DNA from: a virus
Lineage: Duplodnaviria > Heunggongvirae > Uroviricota > Caudoviricetes
Length of the DNA: 64,000 nucleotides
Reading direction: 5' to 3' (one strand)
IMG/VR virus record: IMGVR_UViG_3300034196_000151
The notes under the pieces were generated by a model that had not been told where the DNA came from, did not search any database, and worked only from the letters and a program-made list of their open reading frames with translations. The translations under genes and the position numbers were made by a program. Shown here piece after piece: positions 9,454 to 39,088 of this stretch (the first letter of the stretch is position 1; each line of letters opens with the position of its first letter).

Positions 9454-9535
9454 GTTGTATCTCCTAACCTTTGATTTGTTTGTGTTGTTTCGTTTTGATG
9501 GGATAATTATAACGAAATCACTCCCCACTGTAAAG
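9454..9535 (-). promoter_or_regulatory. type A promoter and leader (TATAAT-TATCCCATCAAAACGAAACA...AGGAGATA)
   Basis: Minus strand GTTATAATTATCCCATCAAAACGAAACAACACAAACAAATCAAAGGTTAGGAGATACAACATG; same leader at 20209-20270, 23397-23440, 38035-38075 and 39030-39060. Confidence 0.5.
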
Positions 9536-9580
9536 CACTTTTTTCATCATTTTTTAGTTTATTTCTATTACATTAATAAC

Positions 9581-9606
9581 AAAAAAGAGGCCGAAGCCCC
9601 TTTTTT
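9581..9606 (-). terminator. intrinsic terminator (UUCG loop, G-U wobble stem)
   Basis: aaaaaaGAGGCcgaaGCCCCtttttt. Confidence 0.55.
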
Positions 9607-9621
9607 AACCATCAACGGTTT

Positions 9622-10059
9622 TCAGGCCGCTTTGTATTCCTGAATATAAGTATAAAATTCACTATGGAACTGTGCCCATGTTAGCAAATCTTGCTCTACT
9701 GGCTCAATCAGGGAATTGGAAGCCCCCATGAAAGTAAGCATTTCGATTTCTTTTTTGAGTTCATCTTTTTGAAGTTCGTAAGCCTTAGTAAAGGCCAACA
9801 ACTCATCAGGTGTTACAACGGCTTCGCTGTCTGGCCGACCTTCCAACTGGCGAGTATATTTTGAAAAGATGGCGTTATAATTCCGCTCCAACGCATCATT
9901 CACCGCCGACAGTTTTTGAAATTCAGCCATTTTTTCCTTCGTCTGCTTTCCTTTGGCACGGCTCAACACGTAAAAGACCAACGTAATGTGGTTTTTTTTG
10001 CATTGATCACGAACCACCAAGCTCAGGTAACGCAGTTTTTCGTAGTAGTCAGCTAACAT
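9622..10059 (-). CDS. hypothetical protein
   Basis: ORF with ATG at 10059 preceded by GAGGA SD, downstream of a TATAAT at ~10090; the track's longer N-terminus overlaps the promoter. Confidence 0.5.
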   Translation of the reverse strand: MLADYYEKLRYLSLVVRDQCKKNHITLVFYVLSRAKGKQTKEKMAEFQKLSAVNDALERNYNAIFSKYTRQLEGRPDSEAVVTPDELLAFTKAYELQKDELKKEIEMLTFMGASNSLIEPVEQDLLTWAQFHSEFYTYIQEYKAA

Positions 10060-10118
10060 GGCGAATCCTCGGTTTGTTTGATGGCTTATTATAACATCAA
10101 GGCCAATCAAAAACAAGA

Positions 10119-10292
10119 TTAATTCAGGCGATCATTCTGGTATTCGTAAATGTCAGTGCTGCAACCATCCATACGGCCATGAACAAGCACGCGGTCTGAC
10201 ACAAAAGACTTCAACCAGATCCACTGACCATTAATCGTGCGTGGGAAAAGAGCAAAACGTTTTACTGGATTGGATTCTTCGTAGAGCATCAT
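10119..10292 (-). CDS. 57-aa hypothetical protein (not in ORF track)
   Basis: ATGATG start with AGAAGGA SD, TATAAT at ~10322, fills an otherwise empty 250-nt gap. Confidence 0.45.
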   Translation of the reverse strand: MMLYEESNPVKRFALFPRTINGQWIWLKSFVSDRVLVHGRMDGCSTDIYEYQNDRLN

Positions 10293-10372
10293 CGCTTAAT
10301 CCTTCTGTGTTAATAGAGGTGTATTATATCAAAAAATAAAAAAGAACAACAAAAAAGGGCCGTAGCCCTTAT

Positions 10373-10651
10373 TCAATTATCTTTAAAATAACATTGCGAA
10401 ACAGGAATCCGCATAGTAATGCCAGTATCAACTTCTTGAACTGTAGCAGAAATATCAGCATCATTAATGGCAAAGACCAAAATAACATTATCATGGTGGT
10501 ACGTTTCGAAAGTTCCTGAATAACAACTAACAGTTCGAGTTTTTTTACCTGAAGTGTTAATTGCTTGGTTAGTATTACTTTTCTCTTCGGCCTTACAACC
10601 AGCCGACACAGAAAGAGCGAGTGCAAGTGCAAGAACAAATGTCTTTTTCAT
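10373..10651 (-). CDS. lipoprotein (paralog of 45401..45706)
   Basis: MKKTFVLALALALSVSAGC lipobox; shared CYSG..TY.H.DV...SQC core with 45401..45706. Confidence 0.55.
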   Translation of the reverse strand: MKKTFVLALALALSVSAGCKAEEKSNTNQAINTSGKKTRTVSCYSGTFETYHHDNVILVFAINDADISATVQEVDTGITMRIPVSQCYFKDN

Positions 10652-10746
10652 GAAAACTCCTAATTAATATAAGTCACTTATTGTAGCAGGAAAGATTTAA
10701 TTATACAAACAAAAAGGGCCGAAGCCCCTTTTGAGTAATCTAGCAA

Positions 10747-11253
10747 TCAGGCCAGAACTGGTAGACCACGCAGGTCAATCGGGTCAAGGTCAGACAATTT
10801 AATGTCAACAATGTGAAGATTTGGATGCATGTCTCGAACCATGTCAGAAAAACTGCGAGGCATAACTTCTGCTTCGATTTCAGTCACCGCGTCAGCAAGA
10901 CGGCGGGCTTTGGTGCGAATGGCAATCAGCTCGTTGATGAGTTTCAGCTCATGGGCCGACGATGGCTTAGCTGGGCGGTTCAGTTCCAAATTGCTTTCAT
11001 GACGAAGGGTGTCGAGGTCTTTCTGTGCAGGGAACAGTTCTGCATGGAGAGCAACACCGGCTTCTGTCAGCGAAACACCATCATCATCACGGGACACCAG
11101 ACCTTTGCCTTTCAGGTTCAGCAGAACAGCGTTCACCTGAGAGAGTTTAACAGCTTCTGGGCCGTTAGGGATGTTGTTAACATTCACCGACGAAGTGCCG
11201 AGAGCAACAATGTTCACGATTACTGCGGTTTCGAGAGCGGTAACTTTGGTCAT
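10747..11253 (-). CDS. winged-helix (MarR-like) DNA-binding protein, higher GC than surroundings
   Basis: 168 aa; LLNLKGKGLVSRDDDGVSLTEAGV resembles a MarR wHTH recognition region; GC visibly higher (~48%) than the flanking ~38%. Confidence 0.5.
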   Translation of the reverse strand: MTKVTALETAVIVNIVALGTSSVNVNNIPNGPEAVKLSQVNAVLLNLKGKGLVSRDDDGVSLTEAGVALHAELFPAQKDLDTLRHESNLELNRPAKPSSAHELKLINELIAIRTKARRLADAVTEIEAEVMPRSFSDMVRDMHPNLHIVDIKLSDLDPIDLRGLPVLA

Positions 11254-11353
11254 GGTGTTTCTCCGATGTTTGATTGGGTATCTCGTTTTGATGTGTCTAT
11301 CATATCAAAAAACACATTTACTGGCAAGCATTATATCATCAAAAAACACATTT

Positions 11354-11560
11354 TTATTTGATGAATGGGGCAATCGCCTTTTCGTATTCTTTGTTTGACT
11401 TGTATAAATCATAAGCGAAAAATATCAAACAGAACGAGATGAACCCCCAAAAAACCATTTGATCAGAAAATTCACTTCGGACAGGTTCTTGGACAAAGTT
11501 GTAGGCACAAATACCCATCATCAGTAAACACAACAGAATTTGAGCGATAAGACTTCTCAT
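11354..11560 (-). CDS. small two-TM membrane protein
   Basis: ATG at 11560 with GGTGGGAA SD; ATGA overlap with upstream gene. Confidence 0.45.
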   Translation of the reverse strand: MRSLIAQILLCLLMMGICAYNFVQEPVRSEFSDQMVFWGFISFCLIFFAYDLYKSNKEYEKAIAPFIK

Positions 11561-11820
11561 GGTTCCCACCGTTTAACCAAATCCTCAGCAACAAGTTCTT
11601 TGTTCTGTGGTGTCCAGCAAATACAAACCATCGTGGCAATGACCCCACCAATCAACGAGATAATCATCAATAACGCCGAAATGTGAAACCAAACTGGCAC
11701 ATCAAGCGTTACATGATAAGCCATATGAGCTGTATAGCGACCACTTTGGAAAAAGTTGGCTGTCAACAACGCAAAAATAATGGCAATCAAACCAGAATTG
11801 AACCTAGTGATATGTTTCAT
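11557..11820 (-). CDS. small two-TM membrane protein
   Basis: 87-aa ORF, two hydrophobic helices. Confidence 0.45.
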   Translation of the reverse strand: MKHITRFNSGLIAIIFALLTANFFQSGRYTAHMAYHVTLDVPVWFHISALLMIISLIGGVIATMVCICWTPQNKELVAEDLVKRWEP

Positions 11821-11967
11821 TTGATATCCTCTAAATGGAAGCTAATCTTATCAAAAATACGATTTTTATGCAAGCTTATCTATTGTGGTCGAATAAATAA
11901 TAATCAAAAATATAACTTGAAAAAATATCAACATTTGTTATATTATGTGGAACAATGGAGGAATGCT

Positions 11968-12378
11968 ATGAGTTATGTAAGTGACAATTTGATGGATGGT
12001 GAGAAAATAGAATATGAAGCCAGTTTAAGCAACTGGGGTTTCTTTTGGCAGATTTTCTTTGGAATACTACTTATTCCAGTCATTGTAGGTATTGTAATTT
12101 TAATCGTCGTCTACATTCAGAAAAAGTGTACAGAATTGGCTGTAACCAACAAAAGATTGATTGCTAAAAAAGGATTTATTCAGAGAGACACGGTTGAAAT
12201 AAACTTGAAAAAAGTTGAAAGTATACAAGTAAATCAAGGTTTGATGGGTAGGATGTTCAACTTTGGAACAATTATTGTTTCCGGTACCGGTCATGGTAAT
12301 GCACCCATAAAATACATTGCTGATCCACTTGAATTTAGAAGACGACTTTCAATGGCCCAAGATAAAATGGACGAATAA
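11968..12378 (+). CDS. bacterial PH-domain (YdbS/YdbT-like) membrane protein, plus strand
   Basis: GGAGGAA SD before ATG; TM helix followed by a TNKRLIAKKGF...VESIQVNQGLMGRMFNFGTIIV bPH_2-like pattern; bidirectional terminator at 12381-12411. Confidence 0.5.
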   Translation: MSYVSDNLMDGEKIEYEASLSNWGFFWQIFFGILLIPVIVGIVILIVVYIQKKCTELAVTNKRLIAKKGFIQRDTVEINLKKVESIQVNQGLMGRMFNFGTIIVSGTGHGNAPIKYIADPLEFRRRLSMAQDKMDE

Positions 12379-12380
12379 AC

Positions 12381-12411
12381 AAAAGAAGACTGTTCAAACA
12401 GTCTTTTTTTT
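12381..12411. terminator. bidirectional terminator
   Basis: aaaagaAGACTGTTcaaAACAGTCTtttttttt. Confidence 0.6.
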
Positions 12412-12419
12412 CGCCTACA

Positions 12420-12902
12420 TTATTTGTCATAACGATAATAGAATGTATAATAACCTGAACCACTTGCACCGACATGGCAACCATATTTGCGACCATCAAT
12501 AGGATCAGCAGGAATAGTGGAAACTGTGTCAAATTTTAGAGAATCATAATTAGCAATGATTTGTTTACAAACATCCAGTGAAAGTAATGATGAGTCTTGT
12601 ATTTTAACTAAGGATTCGTCCGCATCAATTACAAAATCAACACTTTCATAGTTAGGAACTTGTGTTAAATAGGCAGCATCTTTAAGTTTACTCACATTAT
12701 CAACACTCATGCCAGTCATGGAAACACCTTCATTTTTTGCAAATAGAGCCGCCGTAGCAATAGTATTTGCAGTGTTTAATAAGTAAGCAGTTTTTGTATA
12801 AATAGAATTGTTATTATAGGCATAAAAACCATAAGCAATTGTTGCAACTGATAAAGCAGCCATAAGAGCAATAGAAATGATCGAGATAATAAGTGAAAAC
12901 AT
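12420..12902 (-). CDS. pilin-like N-terminally anchored protein
   Basis: ACGGAGAATAC SD before ATG at 12902; N-terminus MFSLIISIISIALMAALSVATIAYG resembles a mature pilin helix. Confidence 0.5.
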   Translation of the reverse strand: MFSLIISIISIALMAALSVATIAYGFYAYNNNSIYTKTAYLLNTANTIATAALFAKNEGVSMTGMSVDNVSKLKDAAYLTQVPNYESVDFVIDADESLVKIQDSSLLSLDVCKQIIANYDSLKFDTVSTIPADPIDGRKYGCHVGASGSGYYTFYYRYDK

Positions 12903-13095
12903 GTATTCTCCGTTATTAATATTAACTTCCAAGTTAGTCTAACACCAAACTCTTAATTAATAATTTACCTCGGAGTACAACGATGTCAATTGTTTTTTAT
13001 ACAAGTTAATATATCAAAGTGTCATCATCTATATATAAAAATAAATATATAAACAAAAAAGACAGCCTTAGCTGTCTTCTTTTTAATCCTGCTGA

Positions 13096-13404
13096 TTACT
13101 TCCAGAGCTTCAACATGCTACCAGCCATATCTGCACTAATGGGTTCCATCTCATAATGCCGACCAGTCTGTTTATTGATGATTTCCTTGAGTCGAACAAC
13201 TTCTTTATCTGCGTACTCTTTGGTGGTAAACAGCATGGCCTGCAGAGTTTTTTCGTTTTCTTTAAAGCCAGTGTCAGCACTGACCATTGGTTTATTGAAA
13301 ATCGGAATGGTTCCATCACTTTGAGAATCAGCTTTAAAACCACCCCAGAACATGTAACCAAGGGCATTTTTTGGATCGAGGTCTTTAACGGCGATTACAT
13401 ACAT
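13096..13404 (-). CDS. hypothetical protein
   Basis: 102-aa ORF. Confidence 0.5.
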   Translation of the reverse strand: MYVIAVKDLDPKNALGYMFWGGFKADSQSDGTIPIFNKPMVSADTGFKENEKTLQAMLFTTKEYADKEVVRLKEIINKQTGRHYEMEPISADMAGSMLKLWK

Positions 13405-13511
13405 GTGTAAATTCCTTGTGTGGTTTTTTAAAAGACCGTGCGGCTCTTTTTCATAGAGTGATTATAGCGAAAAACAGTTTTTCTGTAAAGCTGTTTTTGA
13501 GAAAAGACGAT

Positions 13512-13625
13512 TAAAGATTCTTTTTGAACTGGGCACGGGAATAGAACTCGATAGCCGCAAAGACACCAATAGCCAAAAAACCGACAATAACGATTGTGTG
13601 CATGCTTTCAACCATTTCTTTCATG
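13512..13625 (-). CDS. 37-aa hydrophobic peptide (not in ORF track)
   Basis: ATG with GGTGA SD, TATAAT at ~13650; single TM helix IVIVGFLAIGVFAAI. Confidence 0.35.
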
Positions 13626-13723
13626 ATAATTCACCGCTGTTATGGAATGTTGATTATATCAAAATTAATGAATGACATCAACAAAAAGACACCAGAAGGT
13701 GTCTTTATGTTTAACTATTCGTG

Positions 13724-14479
13724 TTACAAAATGGTGACATTGGCCCGAGTTTTGACGTGTTCAATAAAACCTTGAATACCATCAGTAATGAACGCATTGA
13801 AATGAAATTCAAAGTCGTTCAAGCCTGCTTTCTGTGCGGCGTCAAAGTATTCATACATTTGCGGCACGTTCATACCTGTGGTGTAAACATAAACAGTTTT
13901 GCCACCTTTTGCTTTGAATTCGGCAAAAACCTGAACCAGAGCATCTTTGGAGTATCCACCCAAGTTCAAGATGTAAGAGAATTTCGGATCGCGTTCACCC
14001 AAATATTGACGTGTGTGTTCTTCCAGATAAGGGTCATTTTCAAGGTTAATGTATTGGGTCTTGTCGTTGATGACGTGGGTAGGTTTCCAGCCCATATCAA
14101 CAGGTTCTTCGCTTTCAATTTCCCACTCTGGAAGCATGAAGCAATAGCCACCCGCTGAGTTGATCAGCACTCGATTACCATCAAGAATTTCTGCCAGCAT
14201 ATTGGAAAAACGTTTGTTGATAATGCCATCCAATTCGTAAATTGGGTTTTTACCATGAAGTTTGCAGTGAGCAACCGTTGCCGCAAGGATACCAGCAGCC
14301 GGTGTGTTTCGTGGAAGATCGCCCCAGCTTTCAACTTCGGCTTTTTCACGAATCAAATGGCTGACCTGTGCGACGACTTGATTGGAAGTGTGTTCCATAA
14401 AAGCCATCAAATCATCTGGGGTTTCGATCAAAATCCACTGACCTTCAACGGGTGCGTTCTTGATGGTAACTCGATTCAT
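13724..14479 (-). CDS. hypothetical protein (251 aa)
   Basis: One of the larger ORFs; no motif I can assign by eye. Confidence 0.55.
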   Translation of the reverse strand: MNRVTIKNAPVEGQWILIETPDDLMAFMEHTSNQVVAQVSHLIREKAEVESWGDLPRNTPAAGILAATVAHCKLHGKNPIYELDGIINKRFSNMLAEILDGNRVLINSAGGYCFMLPEWEIESEEPVDMGWKPTHVINDKTQYINLENDPYLEEHTRQYLGERDPKFSYILNLGGYSKDALVQVFAEFKAKGGKTVYVYTTGMNVPQMYEYFDAAQKAGLNDFEFHFNAFITDGIQGFIEHVKTRANVTIL

Positions 14480-14581
14480 GATATTTAATCCATTTGTGTT
14501 TTAGTGAAGCCATTATAGCAAAAGCCCCGAACAAAAACAAGATTATTCAGGGTTTAGATGGTTTTTCTTAACAAGAGACTA

Positions 14582-15325
14582 TCAAGAAATGATGTTTTTT
14601 TGTTTCAATTCCTTGTAAAACAAGTCGCGTGCGTAGGCTGGAATATTCTTGGTGTTGGTGTTCAGCAAGAACGTGCGTTCAGTCAACAACGCTTTCGATT
14701 TAGCCATAGCTTCGGCCAATTGTTCACGTTGTTTAATCAAACGAGAGTCGCCACGGTTTGCAATTTCGGTTGCCCACAAGAGTTCACGAGCAGCATCAAC
14801 CGCCTGATTAGCAGCTTTAAACCGTGCCATCACGTCTTCGACTTCTTGAATGCGTTCAGCTTTAATTGAATTCAAAGCTGAGAGTGTAAGTGCCGAGCTA
14901 ACAACAATATCGAATTCTTTAACAAAAGCGGCCAAGAATTCTTCTTTATCAGTGATACCCAACGCCAGAACAGCTTTCATTTTTGGTTCGATTTCTGCAA
15001 CTGAGTATTCACGCGAATATTCAGCAGACAGATCTTTGGAAGGCTTAATGGAAGCACGAACAGTCGGTTCGCCTTCTTTGAAATTGAAGCAAAACGAGAA
15101 GCTACGGTCAAAACGCTGATGGCCTTTTTCATTGTGGTGAATACCACCACGAATGTTGAAGATAGCCATGAAGTCAAACGTCACAGAAGCGGCCACATAC
15201 ACCTGATCATTGGCGTAAGTATGACGTTCTTCTTTACGGTTCAATTCAAGATAAGAAATGAACGACAGTGCTTTAAACAAAGTCAATTCTGGTTTCAGGA
15301 CGGCCATCGGGGTCATGTTTTTCAA
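14582..15325 (-). CDS. hypothetical protein (~247 aa, probable TTG start)
   Basis: AGGAGA SD 7 nt before TTG at 15325; the track's GTG start at 15361 overlaps the TATAAT at ~15351. Confidence 0.5.
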   Translation of the reverse strand: MKNMTPMAVLKPELTLFKALSFISYLELNRKEERHTYANDQVYVAASVTFDFMAIFNIRGGIHHNEKGHQRFDRSFSFCFNFKEGEPTVRASIKPSKDLSAEYSREYSVAEIEPKMKAVLALGITDKEEFLAAFVKEFDIVVSSALTLSALNSIKAERIQEVEDVMARFKAANQAVDAARELLWATEIANRGDSRLIKQREQLAEAMAKSKALLTERTFLLNTNTKNIPAYARDLFYKELKQKNIIS

Positions 15326-15435
15326 GGGTATATCTCCTAAGAAAGTAGATTGATTATACACAAAAATAAGTTTTTCTACAACCTTTTTTAGAGAATAAAA
15401 AAACCTTCCGAAGAAGGTCTTTTTCTTGTTATCAA

Positions 15436-15787: not shown

Positions 15788-15851
15788 ACTGTACTCCACT
15801 TCAAATTAAGAAAACGATTATAGCAAAAATGAGATTTACTGTCCACAACAA

Positions 15852-16148: not shown

Positions 16149-16251
16149 GTTAGATCCTCTTTGAGTGAGTAAATCAGTTCTGAAAACCATACTTGCTTGT
16201 TTGTTTTACTAGGGTCATTATACACAAAAACAAGTTTTTACACAAGCTCTT

Positions 16252-17476: not shown

Positions 17477-17505
17477 ATTATACCAAAAAACTTAAAAATA
17501 GGCAA
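17477..17505 (-). promoter_or_regulatory. sigma70-type promoter TTGCCT-17-TGGTATAAT
   Basis: Minus strand TTGCCTATTTTTAAGTTTTTTGGTATAAT immediately 3' of a terminator and 27 nt upstream of ATG 17449. Confidence 0.6.
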
Positions 17506-17530
17506 CAAAAAAGAGATCCGAAGATCTCTT
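17505..17530 (-). terminator. intrinsic terminator, part of the duplicated terminator-promoter cassette
   Basis: aaaaaAGAGATCcgaaGATCTCTtt. Confidence 0.6.
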
Positions 17531-17689
17531 TCTGTAATCAAAACCGTCTTTTGATTGCCTCAAAGGGAGACTAAACAACACCCGTCAATGTTGAGTCATA
17601 GGAGAACGCCTACACCGTAAAACATGGCTCAAAGGCCGACTTAACAACTATAACAAAAGATCCTGAAAAAATCAAGACCTTTTCTAATT

Positions 17690-19005: not shown

Positions 19006-19034
19006 ATTATACCAAAAACAAGAATTTTAGGCAA
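19006..19034 (-). promoter_or_regulatory. sigma70-type promoter TTGCCT-17-TGGTATAAT (cassette copy 2)
   Basis: Minus strand TTGCCTAAAATTCTTGTTTTTGGTATAAT. Confidence 0.6.
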
Positions 19035-19058
19035 CAAAAAAGAGATCATAAGATCTCT
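19035..19058 (-). terminator. intrinsic terminator, part of the duplicated cassette
   Basis: aaaaaAGAGATCataaGATCTCTtt. Confidence 0.55.
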
Positions 19059-19203
19059 TTCTGTTATTGCTTTCCATTAGGTTAATAAGGCGTTTCGATT
19101 CCACCTTATGCCTTTTGGAACTACTTAGAAGGAAAACATCACCGACTAAAACCCAAGGAGGACGTTAATAATACAACAAATCGCTCAGTGAGTCAACTCG
19201 TTT

Positions 19204-20073: not shown

Positions 20074-20208
20074 TTACTCTGCGTCTTGATGTCGGTTACG
20101 ACGACGATTGCGGAACTCGTTGTCTTTTTTGTGAAATTTTGCCTTTTCGTTATCTTTTTTCTTGCCGCCGCGAAAACGTTCTGTTGCGTCACCGAAAGAG
20201 CCTTGCAT
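20074..20208 (-). CDS. 44-aa highly basic protein, copy 2 of 3
   Basis: MQGSFGDATERFRGGKKKDNEKAKFHKKDNEFRNRRRNRHQDAE; below the ORF-track size cut-off. Confidence 0.55.
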   Translation of the reverse strand: MQGSFGDATERFRGGKKKDNEKAKFHKKDNEFRNRRRNRHQDAE

Positions 20209-20317
20209 TTTGTATCTCCTAACATTTAATTTGATTGTTTGTTTCGTTTTGATGGGATAAGTATATCAAGAAGCGTTTTATTGGTCAATCACTTTTTTCA
20301 AAAAACTTCAAAACAAC

Positions 20318-22418: not shown

Positions 22419-22616
22419 TTAATCATTGGCGTCTTGAGCATCTTCAAAGGATTCGTAATAGCCATCAGCCTCAAAAAAATAACAGGCTTGAAGGAAACGA
22501 TCCTGATCGGGATAGTTGTAACTACTGATCTCAGCATAGCCCATACTGCCATCAGCCCGCTTACGATAGTAGGTCTTGCGAATTTCTTCGTGCATTAACT
22601 CTTTGTGCATGAACAT
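22419..22616 (-). CDS. small acidic protein
   Basis: 65 aa, D/E-rich C-terminus; TATAAT at ~22646. Confidence 0.45.
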   Translation of the reverse strand: MFMHKELMHEEIRKTYYRKRADGSMGYAEISSYNYPDQDRFLQACYFFEADGYYESFEDAQDAND

Positions 22617-22807
22617 ATCCTCACGATTGATTAATATGCTAATTATACAACAATTATTTTTTTTTTAACAACAAAAAACCCCTATTGCGAGGGGTTTTTC
22701 TTATCATCTTAATTAAATTCTCTGATTTAGGTTAAGGTTATGGCTGCATCGGTAGTTCACCTCTGGCACTCGATTAGATTATCTAGTGGTTAATGTTATT
22801 TTCAATC

Positions 22808-22884
22808 TGGTGGGACTTATAGGACTTGAACCTATGACCTGCCGATTATGAGTCGGACGCTCTAACCAACTGAGCTAAAGTCCC
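22808..22884 (-). tRNA. tRNA-Met/Ile (anticodon CAU)
   Basis: Minus-strand GGGACTTTAGCTCAGTTGGTTAGAGCGTCCGACTCATAATCGGCAGGTCATAGGTTCAAGTCCTATAAGTCCCACCA: 7-bp acceptor, D and T arms, anticodon loop CTCATAA, encoded CCA. Confidence 0.85.
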
Positions 22885-23173
22885 GTGGTTGGTGGCCTAG
22901 AAACCTGTCTAAACCACCCAGTATCCTCAATTATATATTCTCTATTTTAAAATATAAATACCTAGCAATCTATTTCAAGCGACTTCGAACTCGTTTATTG
23001 AAGCCCCTGCTTTGGATTTAGTTGTCTACCAAAGGTCTTAGGTTCTGCCTGAATTCGCAGGATGCCAACCTACGAAAATCTCTGTTAGTCCTCTTTCTGG
23101 TTCTAGTTAAGAAGGCTCTATTTTAAGCCTTGTCATCATCGTTTGCAACTGTTTTTTTACATTTATTTAAATT

Positions 23174-23258
23174 TGGTGCCCGGTGCCGGACTCGAACCGG
23201 CACTCCTTGCGGAAAGGGATTTTAAGTCCCTCGTGTCTACCAATTTCACCAACCGGGC
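23174..23258 (-). tRNA. tRNA-Leu (anticodon UAA), type II with long variable arm
   Basis: Minus-strand GCCCGGTTGGTGAAATTGGTAGACACGAGGGACTTAAAATCCCTTTCCGCAAGGAGTGCCGGTTCGAGTCCGGCACCGGGCACCA; loop CTTAAAA; encoded CCA. Confidence 0.85.
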
Positions 23259-23552
23259 TTAATATGATATGGACTACTCTATTTATATCTGCACCGAGTA
23301 GTGTTCCATACTTACAAGCTATATTGGCAACCGAAGTTGTTGTTCCAAAACAAGCCACTTGTAAGAAGTGCTGGTTTATTCTGGCAAGATGTTTGTTTCT
23401 CCGTTTCGTCTTGATGGGGTAATTATAGAGAAAATCGCTTTGAAGGTCAAGCACTTTTTTAGCTTATTTTTCAAATACTTAAATCAAAATTATGTTGACA
23501 TAACAACGAAAAAGACCTGCTGCAGTAGGTCTTGATGACATAAAATCATGTT

Positions 23553-26223: not shown

Positions 26224-26358
26224 TTACTCTGCGTCTTGATGACGGTTGCGGCGTTTATCACGCCATTGACGGTCTTTTTTATTGTGCTGGGCTTTCTCAC
26301 TGTCGCGTTTCTTGGCACCGCTGAAACGTTCTTGTGCATCACCGAAAGAACCTTGCAT
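26224..26358 (-). CDS. 44-aa highly basic protein, copy 3 of 3
   Basis: MQGSFGDAQERFSGAKKRDSEKAQHNKKDRQWRDKRRNRHQDAE; different (type B) leader upstream. Confidence 0.55.
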   Translation of the reverse strand: MQGSFGDAQERFSGAKKRDSEKAQHNKKDRQWRDKRRNRHQDAE

Positions 26359-26470
26359 TTTTTGTATCCTTTTTGACTGATTTGATTAAGTGAGCAATCA
26401 CAAGGATAAAGGCTTACTGTTTTGCTCGACCCTTGCTGCTTCAACGTGGTTAGTATATCAAAGGTAATTA
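26359..26470 (-). promoter_or_regulatory. type B promoter plus ~55-nt structured leader
   Basis: Minus strand GATATACT then AACCACGTTGAAGCAGCAAGGGTCGAGCAAAACAGTAAGCCTTTATCCTTGTGATT; near-identical copy at 58873-58985 ahead of an unrelated lipoprotein gene. Confidence 0.5.
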
Positions 26471-32075: not shown

Positions 32076-32145
32076 ACGATATAACTCCTGAATTTATAAG
32101 ACATTATACACCAAAAAACCATGTTTTGGCAACAATATTAAAAGA

Positions 32146-32949: not shown

Positions 32950-33043
32950 AAAGCCTCCTGATTAGGGTGTAATTATAACACAAAATCAAGATTAATGAAA
33001 CAAAAAACCGCCAAGAAGGCGGTCTAATGGACACAATTATTGT

Positions 33044-33574: not shown

Positions 33575-33649
33575 GATTAATCTCTCTATGAGTTAGGTGC
33601 CTATTATACCAAAACCTGTTTTTTAATGCAACTGAAACCGTCCGTTCAA

Positions 33650-34144
33650 CTACACTTCAAGAGCTGCTTTTTCTCGTTTAATTTGGCGTTCTTCACGTTT
33701 TCGGGAAATCACTTTGGGATCTCGACGGTCACGGTGTTTTTGTCTTTTAGCGGCTTTACGCTCATAAAAATCGACCATTTGCAAAGCCAATTCATCCAGC
33801 GTAATGTCTTGATGCCCTTTTGCTGTGTTGCAATGACAGCACATTGGTTGCAAGTTTTCAATGTCATTGCTGCCACCATTCTTTTTGGCGATAACATGAT
33901 CAACCGTCATCATAACCAAATCATCAGTAAACAAATCCCAGTTATGTTTACCATTGATAGCCGTCGAGAAAATCAAACGAGTGCCCACATTGGTGCAATT
34001 AGGCGTTACGCAAGCAAACCCCTTGTGAAAAAACACCTTCAAGCGTTTATGAGCCTTGAACGCTTCAATTCCAGTAGCTGGGCGTTCACGAATGAACGTG
34101 TATTTGCAAGGTTTGATAAGATCGCCTTTTTTTAGAGGTGTCAT
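33650..34144 (-). CDS. HNH homing-type endonuclease
   Basis: VDHVIAKKNGGSNDIENLQPMCCHCNTAKGH HNH motif plus upstream Cys cluster CVTPNC. Confidence 0.75.
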   Translation of the reverse strand: MTPLKKGDLIKPCKYTFIRERPATGIEAFKAHKRLKVFFHKGFACVTPNCTNVGTRLIFSTAINGKHNWDLFTDDLVMMTVDHVIAKKNGGSNDIENLQPMCCHCNTAKGHQDITLDELALQMVDFYERKAAKRQKHRDRRDPKVISRKREERQIKREKAALEV

Positions 34145-34154
34145 TTTTTATCCC

Positions 34155-34640
34155 CTAGACTGATTCGGCCAGTTCTTCTTGCCCGCGACGTTCAGCTCTG
34201 CGTTGTTCTTTGGCGAGTTTCTTTTCAATCTTTCGAGCTTCCTTATGCTTGGCATGTTCAACCACCAACACAGCCAATTCATCAAGAGTAATGTCTTGAT
34301 TATGTTTAATCGTGTTGCAAATCGAACACATAGGTTGCAAGTTTGCAAGTTCGTTGTTGCCACCGTTAGCCTTGGCAACAATATGATCAATGTTGATCAA
34401 AACAGCATCATCTGTATAAACATCCCAATGTTCACCGCCTTGAACATCACGGGAGAAAATGAGGCGAGTGCCAACATGTTTGCAATTAGGCGTGACACAT
34501 GCCACACCTTTATTCACAAAGACTTTAAGACGACGATGATTTTCAAACATCTGCAACGCAATCAACCCACCTTCGTAAACATACGAAAAATTACAGCCGG
34601 GGATTTTGTCACCTTTGTTAAAAGTTTTCATAACGGTCAT
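34155..34640 (-). CDS. HNH homing-type endonuclease (tandem paralog)
   Basis: IDHIVAKANGGNNELANLQPMCSICNTIKHN; ~55-60% identical to 33650..34144. Confidence 0.75.
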   Translation of the reverse strand: MTVMKTFNKGDKIPGCNFSYVYEGGLIALQMFENHRRLKVFVNKGVACVTPNCKHVGTRLIFSRDVQGGEHWDVYTDDAVLINIDHIVAKANGGNNELANLQPMCSICNTIKHNQDITLDELAVLVVEHAKHKEARKIEKKLAKEQRRAERRGQEELAESV

Positions 34641-34703
34641 GGCCTTGTTCTATTGAGATTGAGACTATTGTAACAGAATAGACACCATCATTCTACTCAT
34701 AAA

Positions 34704-35114
34704 TCAGTTTTTTTGAGTGAAAAGATACGGCTCGGCGGTGATGTGAATAGTCACTGAATTGACCAAAAATTTCGCCATAACGAGTTTAAACCGTTGAACA
34801 ACCACACCAGAAATAATCGTGCCATGATGGTTGTATTCCACTTTTGAGCCTTTTTTCAAATTCGAAAATTCTTGTGCATAACAGGCTTTAAAATCATCTG
34901 GCATGTTATCAAATTGAAGTTTTTTAAACTGAGGTTCTTCAATCTGCTGGGCATGATTGGAATGTGTTAATGGGGCACAATATTTTAAGTAATATTTACT
35001 ATATGCGGTGGCTGGTTTAAAAAGAACAACACGTTCATCTTTAGCAATAAACGCAAGATAAGAATCACTAAACTGGTGATATTCGAAAATATCACCTACC
35101 TGTAAAACAGTCAT
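34704..35114 (-). CDS. hypothetical protein
   Basis: 136-aa ORF. Confidence 0.5.
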   Translation of the reverse strand: MTVLQVGDIFEYHQFSDSYLAFIAKDERVVLFKPATAYSKYYLKYCAPLTHSNHAQQIEEPQFKKLQFDNMPDDFKACYAQEFSNLKKGSKVEYNHHGTIISGVVVQRFKLVMAKFLVNSVTIHITAEPYLFTQKN

Positions 35115-35554
35115 TCCGTCACCAGAACAGGCCGTTCAAAGATTTTAACCAACCAAAGAGCGTTCATCATGCCGGTATCAACCGATTTCATACGGCCACA
35201 AGGGCGATACATTTCACGGTTGTGGAAAGTGGGACACTTTTCATGCCAGCTCCAAAAACCATCAAGGCTACCTGTCAAAAAATTAGCCCATTCTGGTGCC
35301 GTTTCCCAGCTTGGCCGTTGAGTGACCATAAAGAACAATTCTGGGTCAAGTTCGAAATAGAACTTGGGATTTTGGAGAATTTGGGAGGTAAACACCAGAT
35401 CATTGTCGAGACAATCACGCTTAGAGCTATGAAGCAATTTGTTGGTGATAGCTTGATGCGGGTAATTAGCAGCAGAAACACGTTCACGCACCAGTTTGGC
35501 GACTTTGCTAATGTTGCATTCAACTTCGGAAGCGGAAAGAGTTGGCTTGCACAT
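35111..35554 (-). CDS. hypothetical protein
   Basis: Start at MCKPTLS with AGAGG SD below a TATAAT at ~35585. Confidence 0.45.
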   Translation of the reverse strand: MCKPTLSASEVECNISKVAKLVRERVSAANYPHQAITNKLLHSSKRDCLDNDLVFTSQILQNPKFYFELDPELFFMVTQRPSWETAPEWANFLTGSLDGFWSWHEKCPTFHNREMYRPCGRMKSVDTGMMNALWLVKIFERPVLVTE

Positions 35555-35695
35555 AAAATTAGCCTCTGTAAGTAATGACTTAATTATAACAGAGTTTTTA
35601 TTCATGTTCAACATTTTATAGTTTTTTAAAAGATTGTTTTATGCTCTCAATTGTATTATAATAGGTGTCCAAAACTCAACAATGGAAAGAGATTA

Positions 35696-35952
35696 TGACA
35701 GAAGTTCAAAAAGAAATTCCTTGGCATGAAGCTCCTGCAGGCACCACGCATTATGCGGCTGAAAGCAGTGATTATCAATACGCCGAAAGCTGGTATCGTT
35801 TTGAAAACGGCGAGTGGTATTGTGTCAACACGCATAACGCTTGGCGTGTCGTGAACCGTGGGCTTGAAGCATGGCATTACATTGGCAAGACAATGAAACG
35901 TTCAATGAGCGATTTGATTGAGCGTGTTCCACCTGTTGAAGTGACAAGCTAA
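35696..35952 (+). CDS. hypothetical Trp-rich protein, plus strand
   Basis: AAAGAGATT SD; own terminator at 35966-35997. Confidence 0.45.
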
Positions 35953-35965
35953 GCACACCAGAAAA

Positions 35966-35997
35966 GAAAAAGCCGGGTAACTCCGGTTTTTTTATGC
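35966..35997 (+). terminator. plus-strand terminator after 35696..35952
   Basis: aaaaaGCCGGGtaacTCCGGttttttt. Confidence 0.55.
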
Positions 35998-36030
35998 CTT
36001 TTATTTTGTTAGGAAGAAAAATAAGACGTA

Positions 36031-36058
36031 AAAAAAGGCACACCATCACTGGAATGCC
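36031..36058 (-). terminator. conserved-stem terminator family member (GNRA loop)
   Basis: On the minus strand GGCAUUCCA-GUGA-UGGUGUGCC followed by a U-run. Confidence 0.55.
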
Positions 36059-36079
36059 TTTTGTCAACAACTGTCCTTT

Positions 36080-36727
36080 TTACACTTGTCGTGCTTCCAT
36101 GACATGAATGAGGTCATGACTATACACGGGGTTAGTTCTCACCAGACCGTTCTGGATAAAATTCAAGAGGGTTGGGTATTTTTTACGAAACTCTTTCGGT
36201 AAAGCTTCAAAGAGTTCATCCTTCAATGTGTTGAAGTGCTTAATATCGGGATTGTAATATACAACGTCTTTTTGAGCTTTAATTTCAAAGTTGGTAAAAC
36301 CCAACTCACGATAAGCGACGATTAGTGCCTCATAATCAACAGGGTCGATGATTTTCTTGTTGATGAACAAAGCAGCCCCCAAATCGCTCTCAGGAACACG
36401 GACAGCAGCCAAAAATTCTTGGGTCAGTTTTTCGAGTTCGGCCTGAATTTTATCATTATGTTTAGAAACTTCTTCTCGTCGGCTATTAATCAAATTACCA
36501 AAAACTTCAAGGTCTGCCACCAGTTTTTCTTGCATAGCTAAAGCAGCGGCTGGCATTGCGTCGGTTTGTAGTTCACGAACAATATCCGCCAACGAACGGG
36601 AATCGTCATGTTCTTCATACCAAACATCAGGAGAAGACGGGAGTTGCAGCATTTTGGCATGCAAGGCTTTTTTAGCCACTTGAAATTCAGCGGTCAATTT
36701 TTTTACGTCTTCAACAGTTACTGTCAT
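36080..36727 (-). CDS. hypothetical protein, paralog family member 1
   Basis: 215 aa; shared blocks (F/L)I(N/D)K(K/R)(I/K)I.P.D.A.L(I/V).(A/V)Y..LG(F/I)T.(F/Y)...(K/R)D(V/I)VYYNP. Confidence 0.55.
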   Translation of the reverse strand: MTVTVEDVKKLTAEFQVAKKALHAKMLQLPSSPDVWYEEHDDSRSLADIVRELQTDAMPAAALAMQEKLVADLEVFGNLINSRREEVSKHNDKIQAELEKLTQEFLAAVRVPESDLGAALFINKKIIDPVDYEALIVAYRELGFTNFEIKAQKDVVYYNPDIKHFNTLKDELFEALPKEFRKKYPTLLNFIQNGLVRTNPVYSHDLIHVMEARQV

Positions 36728-36802
36728 TTTTCATCACCATAATTGATTGAATTATTAAACTAATGAAGCATTATAGCAGAAAATAAAAACAAAAACAACA
36801 TT

Positions 36803-36833
36803 AAAAAAAAAGGCACTTCATCACTGGAATGCC
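36803..36833 (-). terminator. conserved-stem terminator family member
   Basis: aaaaaaaaaGGCACTTCATCACTGGAATGCC; on the minus strand a 9-bp stem with a GUGA loop, then a U-run. Confidence 0.55.
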
Positions 36834-36849
36834 TCAAATATCTGTGTAG

Positions 36850-37494
36850 TTATGCTTTTTTGGCATTAAAAACCGATGACATGCACGCGGTCAATGGGTC
36901 TGAATCAACGTATTCACTTCTCATATTATCCCAAAGGTCGGGGTAATTATGTTGAAACAATGATGGTGAATTCATGATGATCATGTTTTTCAAGCCATCT
37001 TCATCTACCTTGTTAGGATTGTAATAAACAATATCACGAAGTGTGAAGGTTTTGTAATGAGTGATCCCCAAAGTTTTATAAACGTCCACCAGAGTGGCAT
37101 GATCTTCTGGGGTAATTTTTCGCTTGTCAATGAGCAAAACGGCAGAAAGCAAACGTTCTGGAATATCAGTAGCTTTAAGATATTCCGTATGCAAATTACG
37201 CATTTCCATGCTGACATTGTAGTTGTTCAATTTAGCAACATGAATTTTCTCATTCATGATGTTTTGGTACGTTAACAACGCTTTCATAGCAGCTTCATGA
37301 GGCTCTTTGGCTTCTTCTGGCAATGGGTCAGTAGCCATATCACGAAGCATGTCAAGCAGCGTCGTCTCCCTCTCTGTGGCATGGTTGTAGACTTTAAAGC
37401 TGGCAGGAATTAACACAATATTTTTACCCAACTCGTCGCGGGCTAATTTGTAAGCCTTGGTCAATTGTTCAAGCTCGGAGTGAGTCAAAATCAT
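36850..37494 (-). CDS. hypothetical protein, paralog family member 2
   Basis: Start MILTHSELEQ with AAGGTGA SD; paralog of 36080..36727 and 63164..63796. Confidence 0.55.
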   Translation of the reverse strand: MILTHSELEQLTKAYKLARDELGKNIVLIPASFKVYNHATERETTLLDMLRDMATDPLPEEAKEPHEAAMKALLTYQNIMNEKIHVAKLNNYNVSMEMRNLHTEYLKATDIPERLLSAVLLIDKRKITPEDHATLVDVYKTLGITHYKTFTLRDIVYYNPNKVDEDGLKNMIIMNSPSLFQHNYPDLWDNMRSEYVDSDPLTACMSSVFNAKKA

Positions 37495-37575
37495 GATAAT
37501 CACCTTGAAGTAAGTTTTTAAATCGTGCCGTCATTATAACACTAGTTGATAGCAAAAACAACATTTATTGAAAGC

Positions 37576-37603
37576 AAAAAAGGCACTCCATCGCTGGAAT
37601 GCC
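37576..37603 (-). terminator. conserved-stem terminator family member
   Basis: aaaaaaGGCACTCCATCGCTGGAATGCC. Confidence 0.55.
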
Positions 37604-37622
37604 TCTTGTCCATCAATCGAGG

Positions 37623-38024
37623 TTAGCGAACCCAGCTATTGGCCTCGAATACCGCCATGTGCAGGGCTTCGATTTTGATTTGGAAGGAACGAACAACCAT
37701 TTCAGCTTCGCCCATTTGGCAGAAGTAAGCCATCGACTTGTCAAGTTCAGCGACTTGTTCCAGAACCGCACGATTGACGCTGTGCAACTGAAAGCGGTCA
37801 AGACGAACCGAACGTTCACCCGACAGTTCGGCGGCTCGCATGGTGGAAACAAGGCAGTCAAGACGGCTAACAGTTTCTTTATGCTTGCTGAGAAGGCGTT
37901 CGTTGGCGTCCTGATCCATCGAGTCAAAATCAGTAACGCTGTCCAGAACGTGCATGTTTTTTTCAAGGCCATTTACGGCGGCAATCAGAGCATTGGTCAG
38001 CAATACGAGAGTGGAAGTTTTCAT
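37623..38024 (-). CDS. probable periplasmic protein
   Basis: 133 aa, N-terminal signal-like MKTSTLVLLTNALIAAVNG; type A leader upstream. Confidence 0.5.
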   Translation of the reverse strand: MKTSTLVLLTNALIAAVNGLEKNMHVLDSVTDFDSMDQDANERLLSKHKETVSRLDCLVSTMRAAELSGERSVRLDRFQLHSVNRAVLEQVAELDKSMAYFCQMGEAEMVVRSFQIKIEALHMAVFEANSWVR

Positions 38025-38122
38025 GATTTTGTTTCCTTGGCTTGTTTAAGTGGGATAAGTATAACAACATTCACTAGGGTTAGCAAGACATTTAGGCTTT
38101 CAAAATGAAGCTTTTTGAAAGC

Positions 38123-38518
38123 TTAGCAATCCAAAGTAGTAAACGTGAGCGGCATAATTTGTTCGAAGGTGTAAACCTTAAATTTGCCATCTTTGTTGGA
38201 AAGGATGACTTCTGTTTCAGGTTCAAAAAACTCACTCATGATTTGACGGCAGGCACCACAAGGTGGAAGAGGGGCTACGGTATCCCCATTAATAGTGATA
38301 CTGAGGTAATCACCTTTACGGCAACCTTGCATATGAGCCACACAAAATGCAGTGCGTTCAGCACAACTACACATAGAATAGGAAGCATTTTCAATGTTTG
38401 CCCCCAAGAAAACACCTTTCTTGGTCAGTAACGCAACACCCACACGAAATTTAGATTCTGGAACATAAGCGTGCTCCTTAGCTTCCATTGCTTTTTTGAC
38501 AAGATCCGTGTGATTCAT
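38123..38518 (-). CDS. cytidine/deoxycytidylate deaminase family zinc enzyme
   Basis: CAERTAF (C/H-A-E) and PPCGACRQ (PCxxC) zinc-ligand motifs; 131 aa, Cdd-like size. Confidence 0.7.
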   Translation of the reverse strand: MNHTDLVKKAMEAKEHAYVPESKFRVGVALLTKKGVFLGANIENASYSMCSCAERTAFCVAHMQGCRKGDYLSITINGDTVAPLPPCGACRQIMSEFFEPETEVILSNKDGKFKVYTFEQIMPLTFTTLDC

Positions 38519-38656
38519 GTTAAACTCTCTTTTTCATATAGGTTAATAGGTTATATAGCTATTATAACAAAAGCAATAAGGAATTTCAAGTAAAATCAAG
38601 GTTTATGAAAAAGAAAAAACCCGGAACAATGTCCGGGTCTTTTGTTGACTGCTTGA

Positions 38657-39016
38657 TTAAGCGGCCATTTTTTTCAGTTGCTCAACAAAGGCTTCGGTTT
38701 CGAAACGGTCGATGTCAGCGTAGTTGTTTTGACCACCAGAGTAGTCTTTCATGCCTTTGCAAGTGCGGAACAGAACCTGCAGGCCACGACCAGACAGCGA
38801 TTCAGCAATTTGAACATACAGGCTTTCGCTGTGCAGGGTAACTTCACCGGAAACTGCAATGCCACCCTTGTTGCTACGCACTTCAAAACCACCTGCTGGA
38901 AGGTTCAGTTTCACAGCCAGTTCCTTCAGTGCTTTTTTACCGGCACGGTGAAATTGATCTTTATTGGTTTCGTTGTAGGACATTTCTTTGTTTTTCAACT
39001 GTTGAAGAGTAGCCAT
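38657..39016 (-). CDS. hypothetical protein
   Basis: Start MATLQQL with AAAGAGG SD; type A leader upstream. Confidence 0.45.
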   Translation of the reverse strand: MATLQQLKNKEMSYNETNKDQFHRAGKKALKELAVKLNLPAGGFEVRSNKGGIAVSGEVTLHSESLYVQIAESLSGRGLQVLFRTCKGMKDYSGGQNNYADIDRFETEAFVEQLKKMAA

Positions 39017-39088
39017 TGGGTAAACCTCTTTCATGTCGTTTGGTATGGGATAATTATACCAATCAAAAACCATATTTACAAGCTATAT

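Follow-up and report, generated by a model that had tools for sequence, protein, structure and literature searches.

At five places in a stretch of 64,000 nucleotides from a virus of the Caudoviricetes (IMG/VR record IMGVR_UViG_3300034196_000151; the whole of this stretch is referred to as the window), a promoter -10 hexamer on the minus strand is directly followed by the same short sequence. This raises the question what a conserved block at such a position serves: the promoter, the 5' end of the transcript, or nothing of its own, having only been copied together with its neighbours. In the usual picture, sigma70 promoters are conserved down to the -10 hexamer plus a 3-bp start preference, and the initial transcribed sequence (ITS) tunes the output while its sequence is regarded as unconstrained. 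In the lineage studied here, a specific ITS of 10 to 14 nt is held in a fixed -10 register, varies less than the protein encoded behind it, and recurs in several large phage genomes before tRNA operons and genes unrelated to each other. This conserved start box is most likely a lineage-specific initial-transcribed element, and the sigma70-type early promoters that carry it are ordinary in other respects.

Anatomy of the five sites and the promoter class of the window

The sequences pointed out in the earlier note are present where they had been located: the exact string TATAAT/TATACT plus TAYCCCA (TAWWMTTAYCCCA) occurs five times in the window, always on the minus strand, with the first bases of the -10 hexamers at 9511, 20265, 23427, 38063, and 39058. 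If up to one mismatch is allowed, 14 matches are obtained versus 1.26 expected, a number reached in none of 100 shuffles. All five sites qualify as sigma70-type promoters, with a 17-bp spacer, at most one mismatch in the -10 and at most two in the -35 hexamer. Sites 1 and 2 precede two of the three window copies of a basic 44-amino acid protein, here called MQGS (pattern MQGSFG..RDKRRNRHQDAE), and site 3 precedes a tRNA operon. The +1 positions given below were set from standard sigma70 geometry, i.e., from the distance to the -10 hexamer.

9486 to 9543, minus strand: site 1, promoter and start box; AAAAAGTGC plus -35 TTTACA (9534-9529), 17-bp spacer, -10 TATAAT (9511-9506), discriminator TATCCC (9505-9500), predicted +1 A at 9499, ITS ATCAAAACGAAACA (9499-9486); aligned as aaaaaagtgcTTTACA-17-TATAAT tatccc / predicted start / ATCAAAACGAAACAAC
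20240 to 20297, minus strand: site 2, promoter and start box; AAAAAGTGA plus -35 TTGACC (20288-20283), -10 TATACT (20265-20260), TATCCC, predicted +1 at 20253, ITS ATCAAAACGAAACA; aligned as aaaaaagtgaTTGACC-17-TATACT tatccc / predicted start / ATCAAAACGAAACAAA
23403 to 23459, minus strand: site 3, tRNA-operon promoter; AAAAAGTGC plus -35 TTGACC (23450-23445), -10 TATAAT (23427-23422), TACCCC, predicted +1 at 23415, ITS ATCAAGACGAAAC; aligned as aaaaaagtgcTTGACC-17-TATAAT tacccc / predicted start / ATCAAGACGAAACGGAG
38051 to 38086, minus strand: site 4, promoter; -35 TTGCTA, 17-bp spacer, -10 TATACT (38063-38058), TATCCC, predicted +1 at 38051, ITS ACTTAAAC of another type; aligned as TTGCTA-17-TATACT tatccc / predicted start / ACTTAAACAAGCC; downstream gene 37623-38024 (minus strand)
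39046 to 39081, minus strand: site 5, promoter; -35 TTGTAA, 17-bp spacer, -10 TATAAT (39058-39053), TATCCC, predicted +1 at 39046, ITS ATACCAAACGA; aligned as TTGTAA-17-TATAAT tatccc / predicted start / ATACCAAACGACATG; downstream gene 38657-39016 (minus strand)

In 5/5 sites, C-A occupies nucleotides 6 and 7 after the -10 hexamer, which fits the sigma70 start rule (a pyrimidine followed by a purine at a distance of 6-8 nt), and C-A-T or C-A-C is found at -1 to +2. By this geometry, TAYCCC would represent the untranscribed discriminator (-6 to -1), the following A the +1 position within a C-A-T start element, and ATCAARACGAAAC positions +1 to +13. The conserved part had previously been placed at or just after +1; this is correct for the transcribed core, which is anchored there, whereas TAYCCC would belong to the DNA and not to a leader RNA.

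The long motif assigned to all five sites is restricted to three of them. Searches of both strands yielded the exact 16-mer CCCATCAARACGAAAC only at sites 1 to 3 (9487-9502, 20241-20256, and 23403-23418), whereas sites 4 and 5 read ACTTAAACAAGCC and ATACCAAACGACA, respectively, and have only the discriminator and the CA start in common with the others. Moreover, the counterparts of sites 4 and 5 in front of homologous genes of related phages lack TATCCC, reading AGCTTT-AATTC upstream of the homolog for site 5 (L011_12194, 72% amino acid identity) and CTCGAA-ATCAT upstream of weak homologs for site 4 (32-33% amino acid identity; L013, L017). The five sites can therefore not be regarded as one class, and sites 4 and 5 are probably ordinary promoters of the same class which carry the commonest discriminator by chance; for annotation, the lesson is to separate the sites and to recognize part of the motif as discriminator DNA. 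The notion of a discrete "type A" without an extended -10 element was likewise abandoned, since TGn is present in 3/5 sites. The ITS of site 4 belongs to a second recurrent type (ACTTAAAC or ACTAAAAC), which is shared by the window promoters at 38051 (site 4), 51764, and 14505 (all minus strand) and is also found at L041, L054, and L011 9975; some MQGS copies of other genomes use it as well.

As judged from a position weight matrix built on -32 to +5 relative to the -10 hexamer only and run over the 64 kb, the window contains 74 minus-strand and 3 plus-strand promoters, corresponding to about one per gene; its open reading frames (ORFs) are nearly all small and on the minus strand. Positions outside the selection are non-random in these 77 promoters, and a weaker start consensus is common to all of them. 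Purines occupy position -5 in 61/77 promoters, C or T is preferred at -3 (p=3e-10), C is present at -1 in 40/77 (52%, p=3e-11), A at +1 in 48/77 (62%), and T or C at +2 in 42/77 and 23/77, respectively (together 84%, p=1e-10), while A is preferred at +5 and G does not exceed 9% from +1 to +8. Upstream of the -10 hexamer, the G of an extended -10 element at -14 is found in 61/77. Reading of the promoter list gives about 22 promoters beginning with ATC and about 14 with ATCAA. The preferences at -5 and from -1 to +2 are accounted for by known promoter biology, because the place of initiation is determined by a YRY "start" element, which also increases the output (PMC12641261), and because open complexes live longer when the second discriminator base is a purine, through its contact with sigma region 1.2 (bioRxiv 10.1101/2022.04.18.488589). 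TATCCC itself is observed 4 times versus about 0.13 expected from independent per-position frequencies; rather than forming a discrete class, it stands at one extreme of a graded series (TACCCT, TACTCC, AACCCC, TGCCCC, and others). Many of the promoters are immediately preceded by a terminator hairpin, with its T-run passing into a TTGTTGC -35 region, followed by TTTTTGnTATAAT. Dozens of such cassettes, consisting of a hairpin, TTTTTTGTTGC, a spacer with TTTTTGn, and TATAAT, are distributed over the entire window, e.g., at 17477-17538 and 19006-19067 (62-mers, 84% identical), 44557-44623, and 45344-45402.

Enrichment, register and conservation of the transcribed core

Exact CATCAAAAC occurs in five copies in the window, all of them at -1 to +8 of a minus-strand promoter. 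Beyond the five sites cited before, the core is carried by promoters with -10 hexamers at 11304 (reading ATCAAAACGAGAT), 48147, and 55152, which are unrelated to the duplicated genes.

11283 to 11327, minus strand: promoter with ITS core; -35 TTGCCA, -10 TATGAT (11304-11299), AGACAC, predicted +1 at 11292, ATCAAAACGA
10747 to 11253, minus strand: gene for a 168-amino acid protein, downstream of the 11304 promoter
48128 to 48170, minus strand: promoter with exact CATCAAAAC at -1 to +8, predicted +1 at 48135
55133 to 55175, minus strand: promoter with exact CATCAAAAC at -1 to +8, predicted +1 at 55140

Relatives of the phage were found through an RNA ligase (74%, 71%, and 62-63% identity, on viral contigs of 64-437 kb). 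In the window plus the related assemblies (441 kb), ATCAARACGA is present in 40 unique contexts versus 2.8 expected, and 33 of these 40 copies are located exactly 6 nt after a -10-like hexamer, with no other promoter spacing seen. A shared initial-transcribed element, as had been suspected, thus exists; it is anchored to +1 and enriched beyond local duplications. It heads unrelated units, namely MQGS genes, the family of the 168-amino acid gene, tRNA units (in four assemblies; related promoters at L039 12879, L029 4655, and L011 17869), and several other genes; four further assemblies have the box upstream of apparent counterparts of the 168-amino acid gene, which show a similar leader and an ATGACC start. 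The more distant clade L012-L022 lacks the box, and TATAAT-N4-CCATCAAAACG has only seven matches in 2.9 million viral contigs, three of them from the contig of the closest relative. A universal phage module was therefore rejected, the box being lineage-enriched and rare among viral contigs. A scan of 185,579 species genomes with a -10-anchored 25-mer gave 0 matches, leaving an origin from a host genome without support, and a literature search for the sequence string returned no relevant match.

A conserved, asymmetric block of 10-14 bp which overlaps the start site and is present at a defined subset of promoters might be taken for an operator, on which a phage or host DNA-binding protein switches these promoters off or on during infection. 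Yet the block shows no dyad symmetry, its distance to the -10 hexamer is invariant (6 nt in 33/33 promoter-associated copies), whereas operators usually tolerate an offset, copies off promoters are not above chance (7 versus about 3 expected), and the window yielded no candidate for such a regulator. A role of +1 to +14 as DNA operator is accordingly regarded as highly improbable.

The conservation of the box was compared with that of its surroundings in two sets. For 12 pairs of promoters from the window and L011, matched by homology of the downstream protein, identities do not differ significantly from those of unmatched pairs in the spacer (0.36 versus 0.39) and the discriminator from -6 to -2 (0.30 versus 0.34), whereas matched pairs are more similar from -1 to +3 (0.65 versus 0.48, p=0.0075) and particularly from +4 to +9 (0.62 versus 0.36, p<0.0005). 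Among 17 non-identical MQGS promoters, in which the first 10 nt of the box were required by the selection pattern, pairwise identities amount to 0.38 for the spacer, 0.57 for -6 to -3, 0.84 for -2 to -1, and 0.98 for +1 to +14, and positions +11 to +14, which lie outside the selection pattern, are still nearly invariant. Codon positions 1, 2, and 3 of the 17 MQGS copies show identities of 0.75, 0.79, and 0.61. As judged from these identity values, the transcribed core is under purifying selection in the related genomes.

These values also bear on the idea that the box has no function of its own and was spread and homogenised as a hitch-hiker by duplication and recombination of promoter cassettes. 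Terminator-promoter cassettes and repeated modules of promoters (families D1-D20) indeed crowd the window, the MQGS and tRNA cassettes are multi-copy and arranged differently in each genome, and shuffling mediated by promoter early stem-loop (PeSL) elements is documented in T4-like phages (PMC4122927, PMC2839356). However, gene conversion cannot hold +1 to +14 at 98% while the adjoining discriminator (57%) and spacer (38%) vary, it leaves unexplained that third codon positions just downstream reach only 61%, and the box is kept upstream of homologous genes between genomes, beyond the paralogs within one genome. An origin of the conservation by such shuffling appears distinctly unlikely.

The position of the box does not depend on the distance to the start codon, with leaders of about 22 to 47 nt or no ORF at all, and the four leaders that were folded are unstructured (minimum free energies of -1.0 to -3.3 kcal/mol, z values of +0.35 to +0.92, first 24-35 nt unpaired). 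The fixed -10 register, the independence from the downstream unit and from the start codon, and the lack of RNA structure together suggest a role tied to the start site, either at the level of RNA polymerase or of the RNA 5' end, with which a free-standing operator or a structured leader are poorly compatible. Only the two tRNAs were matched by Rfam at gathering thresholds over the whole window and in an E-value scan of 22600-23500; a structured cis-regulatory leader or a known RNA family was rejected, as neither a fold nor an Rfam family beyond tRNAs was found. An inverted copy that could serve 5'/3' pairing or processing by RNase III was discarded as well, since both strands were searched and strict copies turned up on the minus strand only.

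Proposed role in start placement and promoter escape, and comparison with known systems

The favoured explanation, to which about an even chance is assigned, sees in the motif the downstream portion of early promoters of the host type (sigma70-like), with the box acting in initiation and escape. Three parts would be combined: a discriminator of 6 nt with the loose consensus T-A-Y-C-C-C (-6 to -1), present in the DNA only; a C(-1)A(+1)T(+2) element, which would fix the start 7 nt after the -10 hexamer; and the nearly invariant, lineage-specific ITS ATCAARACGA, often extended to ATCAARACGAAACA (+1 to +10 or +14). The box would thus place the start on the A, and the first 10 nt or so of the RNA would be poor in G, rich in purines, and free of a Y-G step before +9/+10, so that RNA polymerase would quickly clear these tightly bound, near-consensus promoters. 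High output would result whatever lies downstream, be it the gene of a small protein, the 168-amino acid gene, or a tRNA operon. Since the promoters are near consensus, escape likely limits their output, and the length of the conserved core (about 10 nt) matches the length of the RNA at escape. Changes in the ITS are known to alter escape and output several-fold, with Y-G steps near +6 slowing escape (PMC5961368; PMC9440211). The selective signature is unusually clean, and the mechanism behind it is likely an extension of known promoter biology.

Several points weigh against this explanation. The +1 position is predicted from geometry; the identity of 0.98 is partly circular, with only +11 to +14 being independent of the selection pattern; and about one third of the MQGS copies use other leaders, indicating that the box is not indispensable. 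Escape kinetics normally tolerate many sequences, and an identity of 98% over 10-14 nt would fit sequence-specific recognition better. Finally, GG or GA near +6 was reported to favour escape (Heyduk and Heyduk), contrary to the overall depletion of G in the promoter set, but the ATCAAGACGA variant found in tRNA promoters does contain GA at +6/+7.

Sequence-specific recognition is suggested by the 14 nearly invariant nucleotides, which vary less than the coding sequence, and could occur on the RNA itself. AUCAARACGAAACA would then serve as a single-stranded 5'-terminal tag that is read post-transcriptionally by a protein or enzyme, and a small regulon would be formed by the MQGS genes, the tRNA operons, and a few others. 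Candidate readers include the arginine-rich MQGS peptide, which would bind the transcripts of its own gene and those of the tRNAs; a nuclease, pyrophosphohydrolase, or ligase dependent on the 5' end is another candidate. Such a tag is consistent with the box always lying at the very 5' end, in a region predicted to be unpaired and accessible, with the tRNAs located directly 3' of MQGS genes in relatives, with the two Rnl1-like RNA ligases encoded by the phage, and with the strongly basic MQGS proteins, whose conserved C-terminal motif RDKRRNRH presumably resembles arginine-rich RNA-binding peptides. However, the strict 6-nt distance to the -10 hexamer is equally explained by a role of RNA polymerase, similar sequences after the -10 hexamer occur in unrelated phages not known to have MQGS genes, the 5' leader of a tRNA is presumably removed by RNase P, and MQGS matches no known RNA-binding family: it found no counterpart in Pfam, PHROGs, NCBIfam, or PDB, and a profile search hit 64 clusters of a protein collection, none of which is named. 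A tag of this kind is considered doubtful, and the variant in which AUCAARACGA(AACA) is read by either the MQGS peptide or a phage-modified RNA polymerase and couples tRNA operons, MQGS, and a few further units is rated as equally doubtful. An action on RNA would amount to a new 5'-end-dependent regulon, whereas a box acting on RNA polymerase would represent a natural, portable "fast-escape" module for promoter engineering and evidence that selection can fix an ITS at strong promoters.

Promoters of similar architecture are known from experiments on coliphages, in which they are strong early promoters used by the host RNA polymerase. The early promoters T7 A1 (GATACT-TACAGCC-ATCGAGAGG; annotated start CC-A-TCGAGAGG) and T7 A3 (TACGAT-GTACCAC-ATGAAACGACAG; annotated start CAC-A-TGAAACGACAG) and the annotated phi80 pL (L024 4365-4390; TTTAAT-TACTCC-ATCGAAACGAAAC) also combine sigma70 hexamers, an A-rich upstream flank, and a discriminator ending in CC or C with a C-A-T start and an A-rich ITS containing ACGA; lambda pL is of similar appearance. 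These promoters are single ones, whereas in the lineage studied here one box at +1 to +10 heads many promoters per genome in several divergent genomes. The phi80 pL sequence is a close variant of the 19-mer TAYCCCATCAAAACGAAAC, which three unrelated phages of Proteobacteria carry in identical form directly behind a -10-like hexamer, namely Vibrio phage VAP7 (L001), Escherichia phage EC3a plus a related contig (L006/L007), and phi80-like prophages (L003/L010). This recurrence could reflect convergence on an optimum for host RNA polymerase or exchange of a promoter module; if the box were read as an RNA tag, its presence in VAP7, EC3a, and the phi80-type pL would suggest a shared host-side reader in Proteobacteria.

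A dependence of escape on the ITS has been described for T5 N25/N25anti and in further studies, in which the first 10-20 bases or so modulate output several-fold (Heyduk and Heyduk, 2018; LaFleur et al., 2022) and the stability of the R-loop over the first 15 nt matters for output (PMC5961368, PMC9440211, PMC12464699). The box resembles favourable sequences of this kind in lacking a Y-G step before +9/+10 and in its purine-rich RNA, but no single conserved natural ITS was seen in those studies, in contrast to the fixed 10-14-mer observed here, which goes beyond composition rules. Similarly, the bacterial YRY start element (Kuo et al., 2025; PMC12641261), which is matched by the C-A-T or C-A-C of all five sites, comprises 3 bp and leaves +3 to +14 unexplained.

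The dense array of sigma70-like early promoters, about one per small ORF and many of them behind a terminator hairpin, in a hyperplastic ORFan region whose gene content differs cassette by cassette between relatives is reminiscent of the PeSL systems of T4-like phages (PMC4122927). The large, uncultivated phage studied here is not a known T4-like virus, however, and a conserved ITS does not feature in descriptions of PeSL. Among the five sites, a stem-loop adjoins the promoter only at site 4 (GCTTTCAAAA...TTTTGAAAGC); the terminator lies 50-65 nt further upstream at sites 1 and 3 and is lacking at sites 2 and 5, and the window promoter families with an upstream stem-loop are D4, D7, D12, and D17. 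In the first 50 kb of T4 (1-50 kb), 11 early-type promoter candidates were found, some of which are probably false positives; they mostly start with T(-1)A(+1)T(+2), and the extended ITS consensus is not found among them, so that the likeness is limited to the AAAGTTGTTTAC-like flank of the -35 region.

Other known promoter elements fit less well. Promoters of T7-class single-subunit RNA polymerases consist of a contiguous conserved block of about 20 bp (-17 to +6) without -35 and -10 hexamers. They likewise repeat a conserved block across +1 into the transcript, but the promoters of the window have canonical sigma70 hexamers together with a variable spacer and discriminator and do not belong to this class. 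A sigma70 promoter-proximal pause element, as in lambda pR', requires a -10-like hexamer with A at position 2 and T at position 6 within the ITS; it was rejected, since ATCAAAACGAAACA contains no xAxxxT hexamer and the nearest sequence, AACGAA, lacks the T. Promoters for capping with nicotinamide adenine dinucleotide follow the consensus HRRASWW, to which the box, with Y at -1 and T at +2, is a poor fit. In stringently controlled rRNA/tRNA promoters of the rrnB P1 type, the discriminator is GC-rich and has C as its second base, the spacer is suboptimal (16 bp), and transcription begins 8-9 nt away from the -10 hexamer (Haugen et al., via bioRxiv 10.1101/2022.04.18.488589); this type was rejected in view of the A at the second discriminator position in 5/5 sites (purine in 61/77 promoters), the 17-bp spacer, and the 6-nt discriminator.

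MQGS cassettes, tRNA units and the phage lineage

The units downstream of sites 1 to 3 and the third MQGS copy are arranged as follows.

9319 to 9453, minus strand: MQGS copy 1, 44 amino acids, MQGSFGEAQERF...RRNRHQDAE, transcribed from the site 1 promoter with an unstructured, A/C-rich leader of 46 nt
20074 to 20208, minus strand: MQGS copy 2, 70% amino acid identity to copy 1, downstream of site 2
22808 to 23258, minus strand: tRNA unit downstream of site 3, with tRNA-Leu(taa) at 23174-23258 and tRNA-Met(cat) at 22808-22884
26224 to 26358 (unit to 26480), minus strand: MQGS copy 3, with another promoter (-10 TATACT, 26457-26452) and a hairpin-forming leader

The location of copy 3 behind a different promoter and leader indicates that the gene can do without the ATCAARACGA box. 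When metagenomes were scanned with the MQGS alignment, 20 loci were obtained on eight contigs from at least six assemblies, and about two thirds of the copies, as counted from the list of loci, show a -10 hexamer, 6 nt, and then ATCAARACGAAACA. The family comprises very basic proteins of 41-45 amino acids (MQGS[FHY]..F..K..D....R..RR.RH) and is multi-copy in every related genome; it occurs in the relatives L029, L033, and L041-L059, often with tRNA-Arg(tct) and tRNA-Leu(taa) directly 3'.

In the closest relative, the same promoter, with its leader (ATCAAAACGAAACATACAAGG), stands before an MQGS gene, which is directly followed by tRNA-Arg(tct) and tRNA-Leu(taa). The neighbouring unit starts with TATACT-tatccc-ATCAAAACGAAGC and continues with MQGS and four tRNAs, and in a third unit TTGACC-17-TATAAT-taccac-ATCAAGACGAGAG stands directly before tRNA-Leu(taa) and tRNA-Met, the same pair as in the operon of the window. 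From this gene order, we infer that the link between the basic ORF and the tRNA operon goes back to common descent, and sites 1 to 3 are probably copies of one duplicated cassette of promoter, leader, MQGS gene, and tRNAs, which have since lost either the tRNAs or the ORF. The earlier statement that unrelated genes and the tRNA operon share the motif thus stands insofar as the box heads both protein genes and tRNA units, whereas sites 1 to 3 themselves are most simply explained by common descent. The arrangement of MQGS and tRNA units varies between the window, L029, L039, and L052.

Further small elements were noticed around these units. A second conserved 5' leader, GAAGCAGCAAGGGnCGAGCAA..CAGTAAGCCTTTnCCCTTGTnATTGCT, begins at about +4 of the promoters at 26457 and 58972 and is found at about 26395-26441 and 58910-58956 of the window (minus strand), about 118-170 of L011, and about 9915-9970 of L039. 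A conserved fold, a hairpin of 16 bp with compensatory changes in two of its pairs, is shared by the four sequences; the leader is not represented in Rfam and might stabilise the 5' end or be bound by a protein. Just 3' of tRNA-Met (22737-22771, minus strand), the window contains a copy of the repeat (A/G)AGTGCCnGAGGTGARCTAnnnATG plus 0-3 codons and a stop, which also occurs in four copies about 100 bp apart in L011 (17906-18231) and in two copies in L029. These elements lie by tRNA regions, combine a strong Shine-Dalgarno sequence with a minigene or start-stop arrangement, and would be read as M*, MQ*, MQH*, and MPY* (MQP* in the window copy); a minigene of the lambda bar type, a ribosome-loading site, and a small RNA are possible interpretations. 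In the leader of the tRNA operon (23376-23402, minus strand), GGAG is followed after 11 nt by TTG CCA GAA TAA, and the related L039 promoter has TTG CAA CAA TGA at the same place, which may tentatively be taken as another mini-ORF of three codons.

A megablast comparison of the window with 50,697 phage records matched only the tRNAs, and the best protein match to any isolate is an Rnl1-type RNA ligase of the Ralstonia jumbo phage RsoM2USA (43% identity). The window carries two paralogous genes of this type about 1 kb apart (46139-47281 and 48229-49356, minus strand; phrog_562, E=1e-43 and 2e-72). An ORF of 590 amino acids (61260-63032, minus strand) matches IS200/IS605-type OrfB/TnpB transposases in its C-terminal half (phrog_506, E=1e-21) and constitutes an RNA-guided-nuclease-like gene inside the phage early region.

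Related phage-like regions are located on very long metagenomic contigs, namely Ga0247725_1000001 (1,539,155 bp), Ga0308158_10000001 (1,859,102 bp), Ga0308423_1259934 (1,851,360 bp), Ga0308157_10000028 (677,834 bp), and Ga0308163_10000024 (497,968 bp); these may represent chromosomes of bacteria carrying a jumbo prophage, or something larger. Sequences of the 290-kb entry UViG_3300024308_000302 recur on the 1.54-Mb contig, where L027 is 100% identical to 285-291 kb and MQGS copies of the entry are also found at about 304 kb and 436 kb; as judged from these shared sequences and MQGS positions, the entry appears to be part of that contig. The largest phage genome found in a literature search has 841 kb; the MQGS copies of the 1.86-Mb contig are spread over more than 110 kb, and independent assemblies give sizes of 1.84-1.92 Mb.

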